Shown here piece by piece: positions 595 through 38,529 of a stretch of 43,814 nucleotides of DNA. The DNA comes from a virus (taxonomy: Duplodnaviria; Caudoviricetes): positions 1-43,814 of IMG/VR virus record IMGVR_UViG_3300011423_000014; one strand, given 5' to 3'. Both the position numbers and the translations under genes were made by a program. A model generated the notes under the pieces. The model was given only the letters and a program-made list of their open reading frames with translations, was not told where the DNA came from and did no database searches. Within the stretch, counting starts at the first letter, position 1; every line of letters begins with the position of its first letter.

Positions 595-947
595 TTGCTT
601 TCTTTCCTTCCGGGGAAACGGTACTGGTAGCGGAGCTTGGCATTGATGCGGCGGCGCTCGATCCTCTCCGGCGTCATCTGGCGCGGCGGCTTCTTCGGCT
701 TGGCCGGCGCGGCGAAGGGATTCTCCTCGTTCTGAGGGCGGCGCCGCGGCACCGGCTTGCCCTCCTCGAGGGCGATCATCACCTCGTCAGGGATCTTGTC
801 CTGAGGAATCTCCCCCCAGTTCGCGGAGATCAGCCGGTCCAAACGATCGAAGACTTTCCGATCGCGGATGGCAAGCGGGGCGACCGGCTGAGGGGGGGCT
901 ACCCCCGCACCGGTGAGGCCGAACTTACGAAGAATCGCTGGCAGCAT
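591..947 (-). CDS. Hypothetical basic protein
   Basis: ORF track; AGGAGG SD; operon packing. Confidence 0.65.
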   Translation of the reverse strand: MLPAILRKFGLTGAGVAPPQPVAPLAIRDRKVFDRLDRLISANWGEIPQDKIPDEVMIALEEGKPVPRRRPQNEENPFAAPAKPKKPPRQMTPERIERRRINAKLRYQYRFPGRKESK

Positions 948-1713
948 GGGTTCCTCCTGCTTTCCGGGCGAGATACCTTTTGGTGGCCTCTCTCTGGCAT
1001 ATTCTGCAGCGATGTTCTCTGCCGTTCCAGTGGATATTGTCAGGCGTCAGGAGGTGGCCATTGCAGCAGTGGGTACGGGCTGAAAGGATCGTCCTCGGCT
1101 CGGTGGTCAGTATGCGTTCCGGCGGCCACCCTCTCTCTACCCGTGCATAGATTGTGAACGGACTCATCCCTGTTCTCGCTGCCCACTGAGAGGCGGTGAG
1201 CGTCTCATCTCCGAAAGTCAGGCGGACGTTATGCCTGGTGTTGTTCTGTTGCTCTTCCCAAGTCGCCCAGCGGCAGTTGCCCGGTTCGTAGTTCCCATTG
1301 GTGTCGATGCGATCGAGAGAGTGGCCGTCCGATGGGCGCGGTCCCATGTCCTGATAGAACTTTACGAAGGAGGCATTCCACTCGGGGCAGACACTGATAC
1401 CTCTGCCGCCGTAGTTATAAAAGCCTAGGGTTTTGGAGTTGTTGCACCGCTGACGCATAGAAAACCAAGCGTGCCACTCCGGCGTGTTCTTCATGCCGTG
1501 GGTGCGCCTCTTTTTCCCGTTCGCGCTGGAGCTTTCCATCATCAGGCATCCGCATGACTGCGTATTCCCTGAGTGCAACCCGCCGGTGGTGGGAGCCGTT
1601 GTTGTGGCACCACAGTCGCACCGGCAGGTCCACCGCTGCTTATGGGCGGGTGTCAAGCCGCCCTTTCCAAGCACTGTCAACCTGCCGAACCGTTGCCCTA
1701 TTAGCGTTTGCAT
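925..1713 (-). CDS. HNH-type homing endonuclease (G.RFGRLTV / CxCDCG / YGGRGI family) with C-terminal Cys/His zinc motif
   Basis: LIGQRFGRLTV, CRCDCG, YGGRGISVCPEW, SLDRIDTNGNYEPGNCRWAT..EQ.NN, THCCNGH...CRIC; start placed at MQTLIG. Confidence 0.85.
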   Translation of the reverse strand: MQTLIGQRFGRLTVLGKGGLTPAHKQRWTCRCDCGATTTAPTTGGLHSGNTQSCGCLMMESSSANGKKRRTHGMKNTPEWHAWFSMRQRCNNSKTLGFYNYGGRGISVCPEWNASFVKFYQDMGPRPSDGHSLDRIDTNGNYEPGNCRWATWEEQQNNTRHNVRLTFGDETLTASQWAARTGMSPFTIYARVERGWPPERILTTEPRTILSARTHCCNGHLLTPDNIHWNGREHRCRICQREATKRYLARKAGGTHAASDSS

Positions 1714-1736
1714 GGTATGCAATACCATAACACAGG

Positions 1737-2312
1737 TCACCTCACTCGTAGCGACCACTTTCCGAACCGCAAATCGCAGCCCGGTACTTCCCGGCCGGCC
1801 TTCAAGGCTTCCTTGATCTGCGTCTTGGAGGCAGTGAAGGTGGCATCGAACTCACCGAGTCCGTCGTACTCCTGAACCAGTGCCCGCCATTCGGCGGCCG
1901 GCATCTTCACGGTGACGGTTTTGAACTCGTCGGGCACCAGTTCCAAGTCGGTGATCTCGACGCTCTCCGGGTTGGCCTGGATAGCGAGGCTCCCGTTGTC
2001 GGCCTCGACCTTCTTCTGGCCGCTCAACTCGATGCAGCGGACGAGGTAATCCTTGAAGCGGGCGAGTCCCGACTCGAGGCTCCCGCGCCAGGCGGCAATG
2101 CGGTTCTCCTCGGCGCGGGCATGGGCGATCTGCCCCTCGAGGTGCTGGATCGCCATGATGCATTTGGTTCTCTTGACCACGGCCTCGCGCGTCTTGGCGG
2201 CGAACTCAGCCTGGAAGAGGGCGAGCTGCTCCTCGGGGACCAGCGCCTCGCTATCGACGAAAGCTTGAAGGTCTGACTCGATCTGGTAGAGGGATAGGGA
2301 CTTCTCAGACAT
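1737..2312 (-). CDS. Siphovirus Gp157-family protein
   Basis: SLYQI N-terminus, AEENRI coiled coil, NPESVEITD..LVP, KTQIKEALKAGREVPG...SLRVR; adjacent to an annealase. Confidence 0.85.
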   Translation of the reverse strand: MSEKSLSLYQIESDLQAFVDSEALVPEEQLALFQAEFAAKTREAVVKRTKCIMAIQHLEGQIAHARAEENRIAAWRGSLESGLARFKDYLVRCIELSGQKKVEADNGSLAIQANPESVEITDLELVPDEFKTVTVKMPAAEWRALVQEYDGLGEFDATFTASKTQIKEALKAGREVPGCDLRFGKWSLRVR

Positions 2313-3195
2313 TGTCAGTGCCATCAGCCAGGGCTTCCCAGGCTTGATTCTCTTCAACCTCAGCGGGGGGAGGCGGGCTAGCAATCGTCGCGCAGTACTC
2401 ATACAAGGCCTTTATTATCTTCTTGATATCGCCGCGCTTCTTGTTTTGCAGCTCATTCCCGTGCTGCATGCCATGCTCGCCGATGATGCGATAGTACTCG
2501 TGCTCGGAGCCGGTCAGCTCCGAGATGATGGGCTTGAACCCGGTGATGATTTGCACCGTCTCGGCGAAACCGGTCGCCTGCGCGTACAGCTCGGCGAGGC
2601 GAGGCTCGATGTCGGGGAGGGGCGCCGGGGCAGGCTTGGCCTCTTCGACGCGTCTGGCGGGCACGGGAGCGGGCGCCGGGGCAGGTGCTTCGGCCTCGAC
2701 CGCTTCCCCTTCGCCGAGTTCGCCGTCCGAGTAGACGGGCACGCCGCCGAAGATCTCGGGCGTGAACCACTTGGCGCCGTTCGAGATGGCGCGGGCGAAG
2801 TACATGTTGCGGGGATATTTGTTATACATGTCGCCGCGGATGCCGGCTAGCTGAGCATCCTTGGCGGTGAAGGTGGACTTGCCGAGTTCCTTGCCGTCCT
2901 TGGCGAGGAAGGAGAGGGTGCAGCCATCCTGTTCGAGCCGCTCGACGCGGAAGTCGTAGCCATGCTGGCGGATCAACGCGGCCATAAGGTTGGCCGAGAG
3001 CGTAACCTTCCCTTTTATCAAGGAGATGCCCATCATAGACGCTATCGGCGGCAGGCCGAGTTCCTGCCCTGCCATGACCTTGACCGCGGCTTGCGCTGCG
3101 TCCTTGGCATCCTGGAAATAGCCGGACTTGGCGAGGAGGGCGCCGAGGGTCTGGACCTCGGCCAGACCCATGCGGGCAGGGAGATTCTCCTGCAT
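2305..3195 (-). CDS. RecT/Red-beta-like single-strand annealing protein
   Basis: AVKVMAGQELGLPP..S...I.LIKGK, FT..DA..AG, Y.KYPRNM.FARA.S, with a Pro/Ala linker and C-terminal domain. Confidence 0.8.
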   Translation of the reverse strand: MQENLPARMGLAEVQTLGALLAKSGYFQDAKDAAQAAVKVMAGQELGLPPIASMMGISLIKGKVTLSANLMAALIRQHGYDFRVERLEQDGCTLSFLAKDGKELGKSTFTAKDAQLAGIRGDMYNKYPRNMYFARAISNGAKWFTPEIFGGVPVYSDGELGEGEAVEAEAPAPAPAPVPARRVEEAKPAPAPLPDIEPRLAELYAQATGFAETVQIITGFKPIISELTGSEHEYYRIIGEHGMQHGNELQNKKRGDIKKIIKALYEYCATIASPPPPAEVEENQAWEALADGTDNV

Positions 3196-10721: not shown

Positions 10722-12371
10722 GTGGTCTATTACGGGGAGTGGGATCCCGGAAAAGCCGCCTGGCTCCGCGAGCTGATCACCGAAGGCGTGATCGCCAATG
10801 GCGAGGTCGACGAGCGCTCCATCCTCGATGTCAAAGCCCAAGACCTCAAAGGCTTCACGCAATGGCATCTGTTCGGGGGCGTGGGGATCTGGCAGTATGC
10901 CCTTCGCCAGGCGGGGTGGCCCGATGACCGCCCCGTCCTCACGCTCTCCTGCCCCTGCCAGCCGTTCTCGGCGGCCGGTGAGCGCCGCGGAGTGGAGGAC
11001 GAGCGCCACCTGTGGCCGGTAGCTTTCGAGCTCATCCGGGAATTGCAGCCGCCGGTGTTATTCGGCGAGCAGGTCAGTTCGAAGGATGGGATCCAATGGT
11101 TCGACGGAGTCAAAGGCGATCTCAATTCGGCGGGGTATTCGGTGTGCGGCTTCGACATGCCGGCGGCGGCCTTCGGAGCTCCCCACATAAGACAACGCTT
11201 ATACTTCACGGGGGTATCGGATGCAGATGGAACTGTTCTCCACGGCGTCGGCGGCCGAAGAGGATCTTCAGCAAAGGATGCTGGGGCGGCTGATGGCAAC
11301 CACGAACGGGCTCCGCTCCACGCTCTACTCCTACCGCTGGAAGATGAGGAAGACGCGGAATGGGACGATGATTGCCTCGCTGCGGGCGAATGGGGTCCGG
11401 CCGAATCCGATGATGGGGTGGCCGTCCCCGATGAAAGCGGACGGGATGGGCGGCCCGCGGCCGTACAGCCTGGAGCGGAAGACGGGTTACGGAGCGCAAC
11501 TGGGGGATGCGGCGGCACTGGCGGGCTGGCCCACGCCGGTGCAGGGAGATGTGCGGAGTCCGGCGACCCCGGAGTCGGTGGAGCACGAGATCGAGAAGAA
11601 CAACCTGCGGGGTACGGTGTTCCTGGCGGGCTGGCCCACTCCGACCAACGAGGATTACAAGAAGGACGGGCCGAAAGTGGAGGCTCGTCTGGGCACCTCA
11701 GATCTGAAGACGTGCGACCAGCGGCTGAGGAACTTCGCCCTCCTGGCGGGCTGGCCCACGCCGAATGCCTCGAACGGGAGCGGGGGCGGGCAAGCGGCGA
11801 GGGCCGGAAATCCAGAGCGGTCGAACGAACTGAACGACTTTGCGATGCTGGCGGGCTGGCCCACGCCCTGCGTGAAGGACGACAACAATTCGCGGATGTC
11901 GCCGGAGGCGGCAGCGCGGGAGTTGCTGCGCGAGGGGAAGGGATCGAGCCTTGCGAGTTCAGCCACACTGGCGGGCTGGGCCACTCCGTGCGCGAATCAG
12001 GCGAACGGGGAACCGGAAGCTTTCCTGGAACGGAAGCGGCGATCGGTGGCGCGCGGGAGTTCGATGGGAATCTCAGTAACGGACTTGGCAATGCAGGCCC
12101 GGTTAACGGCTTCTGGCGAGGGGCCGATTGGGTTTATACGAGAGCACAGCGGCTGGGAGACGCACCCAGCCTCCGGCCAATTGAATCCTGCCCTAAGTCG
12201 CTGGCTGATGGGCATTCCGGAGATCTGGTGCCGGTGCGCCATCCGGGCTTCCCGCTCGCTCAAGGCGAAGAAGCGCGCGTCCTCCGCCTCCGCGGTTACG
12301 GCGACGCCGTTTGCGCAGAACAAGCCGCCATGTTCATCAGAGCGTGGCTAGAGGAGGAAGACTCTGCCTAG
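10722..12371 (+). CDS. DNA cytosine-C5 methyltransferase, large (alpha) polypeptide lacking motif IX
   Basis: Motif I LFGGVG, IV CPCQPFS, VI GEQV, VIII PHIRQRLYF, X LRGYGDAV. Confidence 0.9.
   Translation: MVYYGEWDPGKAAWLRELITEGVIANGEVDERSILDVKAQDLKGFTQWHLFGGVGIWQYALRQAGWPDDRPVLTLSCPCQPFSAAGERRGVEDERHLWPVAFELIRELQPPVLFGEQVSSKDGIQWFDGVKGDLNSAGYSVCGFDMPAAAFGAPHIRQRLYFTGVSDADGTVLHGVGGRRGSSAKDAGAADGNHERAPLHALLLPLEDEEDAEWDDDCLAAGEWGPAESDDGVAVPDESGRDGRPAAVQPGAEDGLRSATGGCGGTGGLAHAGAGRCAESGDPGVGGARDREEQPAGYGVPGGLAHSDQRGLQEGRAESGGSSGHLRSEDVRPAAEELRPPGGLAHAECLERERGRASGEGRKSRAVERTERLCDAGGLAHALREGRQQFADVAGGGSAGVAARGEGIEPCEFSHTGGLGHSVRESGERGTGSFPGTEAAIGGAREFDGNLSNGLGNAGPVNGFWRGADWVYTRAQRLGDAPSLRPIESCPKSLADGHSGDLVPVRHPGFPLAQGEEARVLRLRGYGDAVCAEQAAMFIRAWLEEEDSA
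11221..12351 (+). CDS. Nested +1-frame polypeptide (putative MTase beta subunit) with six GWPTP modules and a motif IX-like end
   Basis: 376-aa ORF lying wholly inside the MTase gene; LAGWPTP repeats; GQLNPALSRWLMGIPEIW resembles motif IX. Confidence 0.8.
   Translation: MQMELFSTASAAEEDLQQRMLGRLMATTNGLRSTLYSYRWKMRKTRNGTMIASLRANGVRPNPMMGWPSPMKADGMGGPRPYSLERKTGYGAQLGDAAALAGWPTPVQGDVRSPATPESVEHEIEKNNLRGTVFLAGWPTPTNEDYKKDGPKVEARLGTSDLKTCDQRLRNFALLAGWPTPNASNGSGGGQAARAGNPERSNELNDFAMLAGWPTPCVKDDNNSRMSPEAAARELLREGKGSSLASSATLAGWATPCANQANGEPEAFLERKRRSVARGSSMGISVTDLAMQARLTASGEGPIGFIREHSGWETHPASGQLNPALSRWLMGIPEIWCRCAIRASRSLKAKKRASSASAVTATPFAQNKPPCSSERG
11410..11987 (+). repeat. Array of 20-bp direct repeats CTGGCGGGCTGG(C/G)CCAC(G/T)CC separated by unrelated spacers
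   Basis: Copies at 11518, 11623, 11743, 11848 and 11968, with a degenerate copy at 11410; periods 108, 105, 120, 105, 120. Confidence 0.9.
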
Positions 12372-12925
12372 GCAATGTGTTTCCAAATCTTCCTGGTGAT
12401 GATGCCCGAGCAGTGACCGGGCTTTATCCCAAATTTGTCAGCGATGTCGAGTTTACGCCATCCGTCGACGTAAAGCTTCCTGATCTCTGCGATATCGCTT
12501 TCGCTCAGTTTGGCCCTCGGATTATTCACTCCGCGTCGTATGGCTTCCGGATGTCTTCGGTAGTAGTGGTTCTCGCCGGACTGCATCCGCCCCTTCGAAG
12601 CCGCGTCTCGCATGTTGTCGGCGAGGGTGCCCAAGAACAGATGGCTGGGATTGCAACAGGCGCGAACGTCGCAATGATGGCAGACAAAGAAATTCCCTGG
12701 ATCGACACCGTGCCCGAGAAAATAAGCAAGGCGATTCGCTGCTACAACAATGCGACTTCTTGGCCCAGCCGGAGTAATACCGAAACATCCATATCCGTCG
12801 CTGTTCCTCATACCGGCTGTCCAAAGCCAGCACTCCGAATCGGAGCGGCGATCCACTTTTTTCCAGAATCTTTCTTTATCCTTCGCGGTAAGCGGAGGTA
12901 GCGTTCTACAATCTTTCAAGCCCAT
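12368..12925 (-). CDS. HNH homing endonuclease with C-terminal HTH (paralog 1)
   Basis: RFWKKVD..CWLWTA..GYG..NRLAY..VCHHCDVRACCNPSHLFLGT..DN..D; AKLSE..I.EIR..FGI. Confidence 0.9.
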   Translation of the reverse strand: MGLKDCRTLPPLTAKDKERFWKKVDRRSDSECWLWTAGMRNSDGYGCFGITPAGPRSRIVVAANRLAYFLGHGVDPGNFFVCHHCDVRACCNPSHLFLGTLADNMRDAASKGRMQSGENHYYRRHPEAIRRGVNNPRAKLSESDIAEIRKLYVDGWRKLDIADKFGIKPGHCSGIITRKIWKHIA

Positions 12926-13088: not shown

Positions 13089-13781
13089 ATGATCAGAACA
13101 TTCGTTCTTGCGTCTCTTCTCGCACTCGGCACTTTACCCGCTGGTGCTACTTTGTTATCGACGCTCCTCCTTCCCGGCGGCTCTTTGTCAAATGGTTTGT
13201 TAACTGTAGACTCGTTTGAATTTACGCGCACCTGCGGCGGCATCGGTGTGTGCGCTCCCCTCGATGCGTCCGGCATCGACGTCACGCTCGTCAATAACCA
13301 GATCCGCTTTGCCGGCGGCTTCACCGCGCTCTCGAACGGGGGCTTCGCCAGTGCCGATTTCCTCGTCGCCTACCACCTCAATTCCACCTTGGCCATCGGC
13401 GGGGTCGGCCTCCTCTTCAACGGCGCCGTGGTTGGCGATCAGTCGTTCGCCGAAGTGATCGAGTCCATCATTGCTCCGATTGCTCACCTCGCCGGACAGG
13501 GTCAGGTCGACGCTCCCGGCGGTCCGCTCGCCGATGCCATCATCCTCGATGGCGCTTACCATAACCTCAAGATAGTGAAAGATATTTTCCTCGTCGGCTC
13601 GGACTCGGAAGGTCTCGGCTACGCGACGATCTCCCTGATCGATCAGTTCTACGTCGGAGTGGGCGTCAACCCGCTCTGCGTCGAAGGCGTGGACTGCGAG
13701 CCTGCAGTTCCTGAACCCGCTACGTATGGAATGATGGCTGCCGGTTTGATCGGACTCTACTTCACCAAGCGCCGGTCCTAA
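13089..13781 (+). CDS. PEP-CTERM sorting-domain surface protein
   Basis: N-terminal signal peptide; C-terminal VPEPATYGMMAAGLIGLYFTKRRS (PEP motif, TM helix, basic tail). Confidence 0.92.
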   Translation: MIRTFVLASLLALGTLPAGATLLSTLLLPGGSLSNGLLTVDSFEFTRTCGGIGVCAPLDASGIDVTLVNNQIRFAGGFTALSNGGFASADFLVAYHLNSTLAIGGVGLLFNGAVVGDQSFAEVIESIIAPIAHLAGQGQVDAPGGPLADAIILDGAYHNLKIVKDIFLVGSDSEGLGYATISLIDQFYVGVGVNPLCVEGVDCEPAVPEPATYGMMAAGLIGLYFTKRRS

Positions 13782-37920: not shown

Positions 37921-38000
37921 GTAGACTAGAGCAGGCCGCGCAGTGTTACTAGCACTGCTACGGCCCTGACCTTATGACCTTTCGAGGAGGCCACATTGGC
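37921..38000 (-). ncRNA. HNH-associated antisense two-hairpin element, copy 4
   Basis: On the - strand, TGTGGCCT-cctcgaa-AGGTCATA and GGGCCGT(A)GCAGTG-ctagtaa-CACTGCGCGGCCT; TAGACT -10 on the + strand at 37922. Confidence 0.7.
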
Positions 38001-38529
38001 TAAGAGAAAGTATAGGCCGATCCCCCCGTTCACTGAGAACGACAAAGAACGTTTCTGGAAAAAGGTAGACAAGACTGGCGACCCGGACGAGTGCTGGTTG
38101 TGGATAGCCAGTGTCAAGAAGAGTGGGTATGGACAGTTTCGTATCGACGGGCGTCCGGTTCTCGCACATCGCGTGGCCTACTTTCTCGGCCACGGCAAAG
38201 ATCCAGGAAAGAAGTGTGTCTGCCACAAATGTGACACGCCTCTTTGTGCCAACCCAAATCATTTGTGGAGGGGTAGCCATGCGGAAAACATCCGCGACTC
38301 CGTATCCAAAGGGCGCTTTACGAACCATCCTTGGCGAAGCCACCCGGAACTTGTGCGGCTTGGAGAACGGAATGGTTTCTCCAAGTTGAAAGAGACTGAG
38401 GTTATCGAGATCAGAGCGCTGTACGCTACCGGACTGTTCAGTCACAGAAAACTTGCGGTGAAGTTCGGGGTTGAGCGGAGCAGCATCTGGCGCATAGTCA
38501 GCCAGAAGAGCTGGCGGCACGTAGTCTAG
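37996..38529 (+). CDS. HNH homing endonuclease with C-terminal HTH (paralog 4)
   Basis: RFWKKVD..CWLW..GYGQF..AHRVAY..VCHKCDTPLCANPNHL..G...EN; GAGGAGG SD with TTG start. Confidence 0.9.
   Translation: MAKRKYRPIPPFTENDKERFWKKVDKTGDPDECWLWIASVKKSGYGQFRIDGRPVLAHRVAYFLGHGKDPGKKCVCHKCDTPLCANPNHLWRGSHAENIRDSVSKGRFTNHPWRSHPELVRLGERNGFSKLKETEVIEIRALYATGLFSHRKLAVKFGVERSSIWRIVSQKSWRHVV

Follow-up and report, generated by a model that had tools for sequence, protein, structure and literature searches.

The window analysed here is the virus record IMGVR_UViG_3300011423_000014 (Duplodnaviria; Caudoviricetes) at its full length of 43,814 nucleotides, a complete 43.8-kb record with terminase, portal, capsid, DnaB, primase and RecT-like genes. 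It holds a predicted C5-cytosine methyltransferase gene that consists of two nested open reading frames (ORFs), an outer catalytic chain (alpha) and an inner chain in the +1 frame (beta), the latter carrying a tandem array of short cassettes (Table 1). We consider it fairly probable that this gene is a phage C5-methylase in which two overlapping frames give one enzyme and in which the inner-frame cassettes are swapped as whole units, each likely reading a different DNA sequence. An earlier note on this DNA had described six modules with both overlapping frames open throughout, and an ORF check bore this out; the third frame is closed.

The alpha chain shows the hallmarks of C5-cytosine methyltransferases, namely the catalytic PC of motif IV, the Glu of motif VI, the RxR of motif VIII, an FxGxG stretch and motif X; motif VI reads EQV in the window, not ENV, and the match to TIGR00675 (43.7 bits) lies under the cut-off of 100.65 of that family. 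The structure model of alpha from a one-cassette relative (locus L055) revealed an HhaI-type large-domain fold (Z 14.4, root-mean-square deviation 3.0 Å, 173 aligned residues). By motifs and fold, alpha of the window is predicted to be a C5-methyltransferase producing 5-methylcytosine. The canonical order from motif I to motif X was not found; 90 of 91 aligned alpha chains have the order II-III-I-IV, and the order is normal in the distant relatives of Paenibacillus phage and mycobacteriophage origin. The placement of motif I behind II-III is not a circular permutation.

The beta ORF contains six GW[PA][TS]P motifs, the W codons of which open the six cassettes, and each cassette follows the plan W-P-T-P, a loop rich in G, R, K, S and T, then L-x3-A-x-L-A-G. 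The repeats at the junctions are spaced by 105, 120, 105 and 120 bp and share 20, 19, 20, 20 and 18 of 20 bases with the first copy. All five copies lie where the earlier note had placed them, with the same periods; a degenerate copy at 11410 has 13 of 20 bases in common with the first. The spacers had been called mutually unrelated, and they are unrelated to one another but not unique, five of the six having relatives elsewhere. Searches of beta in Pfam and NCBIfam gave no family, PDB sequence searches gave no match, and matches in the ESM Atlas were to unnamed clusters only, mostly viral. When folded alone with AlphaFold2, beta gave a poor model (mean predicted local distance difference test score (pLDDT) 63, below 50 in the module), for which Foldseek found no match at E 0.001. 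Among the 120 listed of 2119 matches, no longer fused form of beta had a recorded Pfam domain, which is weak evidence. The motif IX label rests on position and model.

Table 1. Features of the methylase locus, in positions of the window.
Feature	Position	Strand	Remark
Alpha, 549 residues: C5-methyltransferase catalytic domain, unconstrained insert over the cassette array, pre-X segment, motif X	10722..12371	+	Pfam DNA_methylase, E 2e-15; phrog_363, E 1e-63; HhaI match
Motif II-like (YYGEWD) and III-like (DERSILDV), alpha N-terminus, ahead of motif I	10728..10832	+	Residue 1 of the alpha model of relative L055 pairs with HhaI residue 34
Motif I (HLFGGVG), displaced behind II-III	10866..10886	+	Profile positions 37-66 against HhaI 3-32; a weak stretch alone
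Motifs IV (SCPCQPFS, catalytic Cys), VI (FGEQV) and VIII (PHIRQR)	10947..11198	+	P-C-Q and G-E-Q-V invariant in 91 aligned alpha chains
Beta, 376 residues: short N-terminal domain, six cassettes, motif IX-like end; wholly inside alpha, +1 frame	11221..12351	+	phrog_31772 and phrog_1008, both labelled DNA methyltransferase
Junction repeats, 20 bp, five near-identical	11518, 11623, 11743, 11848, 11968 (span 11518..11987)	+	Exchange points; encode L-A-G-W-P-T-P in beta
Cassette 1 (WPSP...LAG, 36 residues)	11419..11526	+	In 0 of 238 proteins at score 0.4; singleton type among loci
Cassette 2 (35 residues)	11527..11631	+	In 1 of 238 proteins; a similar cassette is first in the array of a run X7 contig
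Cassette 3 (40 residues)	11632..11751	+	Identical in P0004, there after cassette 4, not before; in 10 of 238 proteins
Cassette 4 (35 residues), common type	11752..11856	+	29 other members in loci; identical in P0004, P0006 and P0011
Cassette 5 (40 residues)	11857..11976	+	First in P0008, one residue changed; 8 other members in loci
Cassette 6 (~43 residues; end approximate)	11977..12105	+	Identical in P0005, position 5 of 6; 21 other members in loci
Pre-X segment (GFWRGADW...) and motif X (RLRGYGDAV) of alpha	12108..12311	+	Conserved; motif X pattern in 207 of 219 loci
Motif IX-like segment of beta (LNPALSRWLMGIPEIW)	12181..12228	+	Conserved in relatives; packs on alpha pre-X/X in the complex model

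For comparison, 249 sequences were examined (240 loci from three collection scans, eight named phages and the window), of which 219 were parsed by the rule that one ORF must show the motif IX pattern together with one module or more; the 30 sequences in which these did not occur in the same ORF are outside all counts. The rule requires at least one cassette per array, and single-cassette genes do occur. Removal of 23 identical arrays before typing, restored for the backbone comparison, left 196 distinct arrays with 684 modules (median 36 residues). Scoring of 7993 candidates gave 1867 beta relatives.

The modules fall into about 200 types (149-237, depending on the threshold) and form 194 distinct ordered combinations in the 196 arrays. 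An invariant module number and order, named beforehand as the outcome that would speak against shuffling, was decisively ruled out, with one to seven modules per array in loci and two to 11 in proteins. Both orders were found for 55 of the 127 recurring type pairs. With identical arrays included, the cassette list was shared by 16 of 24 pairs at a backbone identity of at least 99.5%, by 2 of 53 at 95-99.5% and by 3 of 72 at 85-95%. Six cultured Xanthomonas phages have the lists BC, BC, BCD, ABC, ABC and ABC, differing by whole cassettes. Cassettes 3, 4 and 6 of the window are identical elsewhere and cassette 5 is one residue off, all in other orders (98-100% score); on the DNA level, cassette 4 has 97 of 105 nucleotides identical in L168, where it stands first.

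The breakpoints lie at the repeat. Among module pairs with different neighbours, 44 and 34 revealed an identity switch at codons -3 to +1 around the W. Contigs of runs X7, X8 and X6 had cassettes like 2, 5 and 6 of the window joined to a different upstream sequence, the joints lying at 11524, 11854 and 11974, respectively; contigs of runs X1, X3, X4 and X5 had no such joint. Cassettes are exchanged whole at the G/W junction; the earlier note had proposed recombination between repeats. The same type occurs twice in only 3 arrays, with 14.6 expected (P 0.0002). Since repeated types are rarer than chance, the growth of arrays comes from the import of different cassettes out of other genomes and not from duplication of neighbours within one array. 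Cassettes would be gained, lost and reordered when the phage recombines with other phages at this repeat, an outcome evident from the arrays themselves. A RecT-like gene, a candidate for the recombinase according to the earlier note, is encoded in the window.

The array evolves under a two-frame constraint. Given the codon usage of the phage, the beta ORF of the window should contain 11.8 stops in the alpha frame, and 0 of 5000 simulations were stop-free. The alpha frame is free of stops across the array in all 219 parsed loci, compared with 1493 stops in 98,184 nt of the third frame; a synonymous-codon shuffle predicted 607 alpha-frame stops for the 196 distinct arrays, and 0 were observed. 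The alpha frame must stay open through the array because motif X lies beyond it. Within a type, differences are mostly at the third codon position of beta, and the ratio of non-synonymous to synonymous changes (pN/pS), calculated from the cores of first and middle cassettes only, was 0.11, 0.22 and 0.37 for beta in three identity bins (73, 380 and 459 pairs) and 1.8-2.5 for the alpha frame, beta being lower than alpha in 46 of 46 types. We conclude that the cassette cores are under purifying selection in the beta frame, which holds the information, and that the alpha insert merely has to stay open. The locus is also a clear example of how a hypervariable region evolves when two frames constrain it. 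A neutral repeat expansion in a tolerant region, with the double open frame as a by-product of high guanine-plus-cytosine (GC) content, would fit the third-position GC of about 0.8 and the poor folding of beta on its own, but the absence of alpha-frame stops, the purifying selection and the rarity of duplicates render it very improbable, and we regard it as already largely refuted.

The earlier note had also taken the repeats to be conserved at synonymous positions and had considered dual coding as an explanation. This conservation holds in the window array, where the five anchors have a same-codon identity of 0.82, with 0.32 expected (0.82 was reached in 0 of 20000 simulations), but not family-wide: anchor codon usage resembles that of the cores, and the within-locus anchor identity is 0.45 (control, 0.38), being above the core control in only 65 of 120 loci. 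Family-wide selection on synonymous sites of the repeats was rejected, anchor codons varying like core codons. Since the synonymous identity is local, it is not forced by dual coding; recent homogenisation in the lineage of the window is the likelier cause.

A structure model of the alpha/beta complex was obtained for L055, with a score of 0.91 and 0.29 for the best of three controls; the mark set for this score is reached by 116 of 157 solved complexes and by 2 of 215 mismatched pairs. Contacts agreed to at least 93% between runs, with a partner pLDDT of at least 79. In the model, His156 of alpha (motif VIII) contacts W101, P102, T103 and L150 of beta, the last being the Leu of motif IX, and both cassette ends (97-109 and 125-133) dock on alpha, whilst the loop 110-124 is absent from the interface list. 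The docking place of the WPT is what we take to be the site of the TL motif in HhaI. Thr or Ser occupies the TL-like position in 678 of the 684 modules, followed by a Gly-rich stretch. In the favoured reading, alpha would give the S-adenosylmethionine site, the catalytic Cys and motif X, beta would give the small-domain scaffold, motif IX and the cassettes, and the two would assemble into one enzyme, with the WPT of a cassette docking beside the motif VIII His and motif IX and the loop free to face DNA.

There is a slim chance that the recognition unit instead spans the junction, neighbouring cassette pairs setting the specificity so that order matters as much as content. According to PMC2413257, a region ~10 residues before the TL motif and the loop after it both touch DNA in HhaI and HaeIII, and the exchange at W lies directly before the Thr. 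Both ends of a single cassette dock on alpha in the model, however, which suggests a self-contained loop, and cassette types keep their sequence next to many different neighbours.

Distant relatives carry the modules as well. Seven actinobacteriophage genes have motifs I, IV and VIII, one to five xPTP (LPTP) modules and motif X in one frame, and the motif IX pattern was matched in six of these seven single-chain genes, the modules lying between VIII and IX. Of 28 distant modules, eight score above 0.5 against the library modules, the best shuffle scoring 0.50. An AquI-like split with two LPTP modules was found in Artemis2UCLA gp90/gp89, and the nested form in Paenibacillus phage Shelly, where it is annotated as 'g55 internal gene'. 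The array had earlier been placed between motifs VIII and IX; the position stands, but in the window family the modules are on the separate beta chain and the motif order of alpha is permuted.

Several points weigh against cassettes that each read DNA. The complex model is of the one-cassette L055, not of the window pair, and a split enzyme may pass the complex score by likeness to solved monomers; in addition, beta of the window is without an N-terminal stretch of ~130 residues, part of which contacts alpha in the model. None of the 684 modules matches the TL consensus PT[ILV][TASV], which PMC2413257 places 10-50 residues before motif IX. The last Thr stands at a median of 58 residues before motif IX (at most 50 in 22 of 196 arrays, more than 50 in 174). 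The residues upstream of the TL-like Thr, DNA-reading in known target-recognition domains (TRDs), belong here to the previous cassette. No significant similarity was found between the modules and the variable regions of two phi3T enzymes, in which module and motif IX profiles matched nothing either. The cassettes are mildly basic at best (mean net charge +0.56; -2 to +1 in the window), and the pN/pS ratios stem from pairs that are not phylogenetically independent, with protein-similarity typing biasing the ratio somewhat downward. Finally, the TRD of M.EcoHK31I was predicted in alpha, not in beta (PMC2836561, PMC3404938).

The last point leads to an alternative in which specificity is fixed by the alpha pre-X segment, as predicted for M.EcoHK31I, and the cassettes bind host proteins or act as decoys. 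The strong conservation of this segment in the 91 aligned alpha chains and the unmatched TL consensus agree with it. In the model, however, the pre-X segment packs on motif IX of beta and the WPT docks at the motif VIII/IX site, and the single-chain gene of WillSterrel and the split genes of Artemis2UCLA have xPTP modules between VIII and IX and, as judged by eye, no pre-X segment. We regard this alternative as unlikely. It is likewise quite unlikely that the cassettes are recognition domains of which one array position alone docks, leaving a monospecific enzyme with the other cassettes as a reserve used after rearrangement. There is a single catalytic site, the complex was modelled with one cassette, and some types favour a position, one being last or alone in 8 of 8 arrays; purifying selection acts on first and middle cassettes in all 46 types, though, most of the common types occur first, middle and last, and no clean deletion between two window repeats was found in the contigs of eight runs, although contigs drop rare variants.

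We conclude that the shuffled cassette system is real and well supported, with one specificity per cassette suggested by analogy. One target per module, as the earlier note had it, agrees with the position of the modules, the selection on them and the structure model, but the sequence tests against known TRDs were negative. Cassettes may dock one at a time, as in the multispecific Bacillus phage enzymes (PMC12707154, PMC8936443), and the benefit would, by the same analogy, be protection from several host restriction systems.

Nested alpha/beta methylases and tandem-TRD methylases are each already known. In M.EcoHK31I from E. coli (YGGCCR), beta lies wholly in another frame of alpha, with motifs I-VIII and X on alpha and IX on beta (PMC2836561, PMC3404938), which is the division found in the window. 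As compared by description only, that enzyme has one specificity, and the accessible text mentions no cassette array, whereas beta of the window family has one to 11 exchangeable cassettes and alpha the order II-III-I-IV. The multispecific C5-methyltransferases of Bacillus phages (SPR, phi3T, H2) have tandem units of ~35-45 residues with a conserved Thr between motifs VIII and IX, are phage-borne, and have been proposed to serve anti-restriction (PMC12707154, PMC8936443, PMC2413257). They differ in being single chains with TL-type motifs, whereas the window family has TP-type units in an overlapping frame, with ~200 types reshuffled between near-identical phages. M.AquI and the overlapping mycobacteriophage pairs (Corndog 6/7) share the splitting of a C5-methyltransferase over overlapping frames (PMC3404938, PMC4351075), but there the second chain bears motif X, which in the window belongs to alpha, and modules go unmentioned in the accessible text; for the mycobacteriophage pairs, PMC4351075 does not decide between two chains and a frameshift product.

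A non-canonical motif order is also known from M.BssHII and M.Alw26I (PMC5944983). All natural permutations given in the accessible text of that paper have their cut in the variable region, with IX-X in front, and the search behind them required X before I; motif I moved behind II-III, as in alpha of the window, is not among them. No paper listed in the literature searches describes the cassettes, their shuffling or the II-III-I order in its title, the opening of its abstract or the accessible passages, and the accessible parts of PMC11954522, PMC5056774 and PMC2884959 contain no description of them either. For the permutation and the TL motif, the alignment supplements of PMC5944983 and PMC2413257 may hold relevant data.

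Should every cassette set a target, this large and common phage gene family would be an anti-restriction system that diversifies fast, and annotation usually misses its specificity chain; in N15 and epsilon15, alpha alone is annotated. With ~200 short natural variants on one constant scaffold, the recognition code of C5-methyltransferases could then be tested directly, and the variants could be a source of programmable methylases. A wider reading, which we put forward tentatively and with more doubt than confidence, is a cross-phylum pool of hundreds of interchangeable TP-type recognition cassettes for one C5-methyltransferase socket, that is, a natural combinatorial specificity library; the cassettes would pass between proteobacterial and actinobacterial phages at the ~20-bp junction, in a region open in two frames, and the motif permutation of the enzyme would lie outside the published types.

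Further observations concern the nested frames. Six of the seven actinobacteriophage single-chain methylase genes (L255, L258-L262) contain a nested +1 frame with one xPTP module, that of WillSterrel scoring 0.78 against a P0005 module. Streptococcus phage P0092 (L256:1505-1924) has an ordinary-looking recognition region, yet also a nested +1-frame ORF that resembles the beta N-terminus and is without modules. The beta frame is open upstream of the catalytic Cys, over the N-terminal stretch of ~130 residues, in 164 of 170 loci. Where relatives encode this part, the window has a 74-residue ORF (10798-11022, +1 frame), after which the frame is closed until ~11191; the ORF is either a third chain or a remnant. 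L020 and L079 have the window-like short beta start, with alpha stopping just after motif VIII and motif X in a separate frame segment; L020 has an HNH-like ORF inserted, and V replaces W at the junctions of L079. Both are either three-chain forms or broken genes. Loci L030, L077, L165 and L226 join the catalytic and beta frames and were not taken as natural fusions because motif X or the beta N-terminal domain is lost.

Beta of the window starts with MQMELF (11221-11238), and 19 of 115 beta proteins (P0004, P0015 and others) have, within their first 25 residues, a QL[S/D]LF-like motif, which we take to be a sliding-clamp-binding consensus and which occurs nowhere else in 40,275 residues. The overlapping frame may be partly responsible for this motif, which lies over motif III of alpha in just 6 of 117 loci.

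In the window as a whole, the palindromes GGCC, CGCG and TGCA are depleted, which is not attributable to the cassettes, and a promoter/terminator scan stayed at chance level; no RNA data set was listed as containing the sequence. Three HNH endonuclease genes are present (925-1758, minus strand; 12368-12925, minus; 37996-38529, plus), the second of which abuts the methylase stop on the opposite strand, with nothing marking its product as a cognate restriction enzyme. At 1737-3195 on the minus strand, a Mu Gam-like end-protection gene stands beside the RecT-like annealase. Downstream of the methylase, the plus-strand gene at 13089-13781 encodes a secreted-looking protein with a PEP-CTERM sorting motif, which hints at a Gram-negative host with an exosortase.

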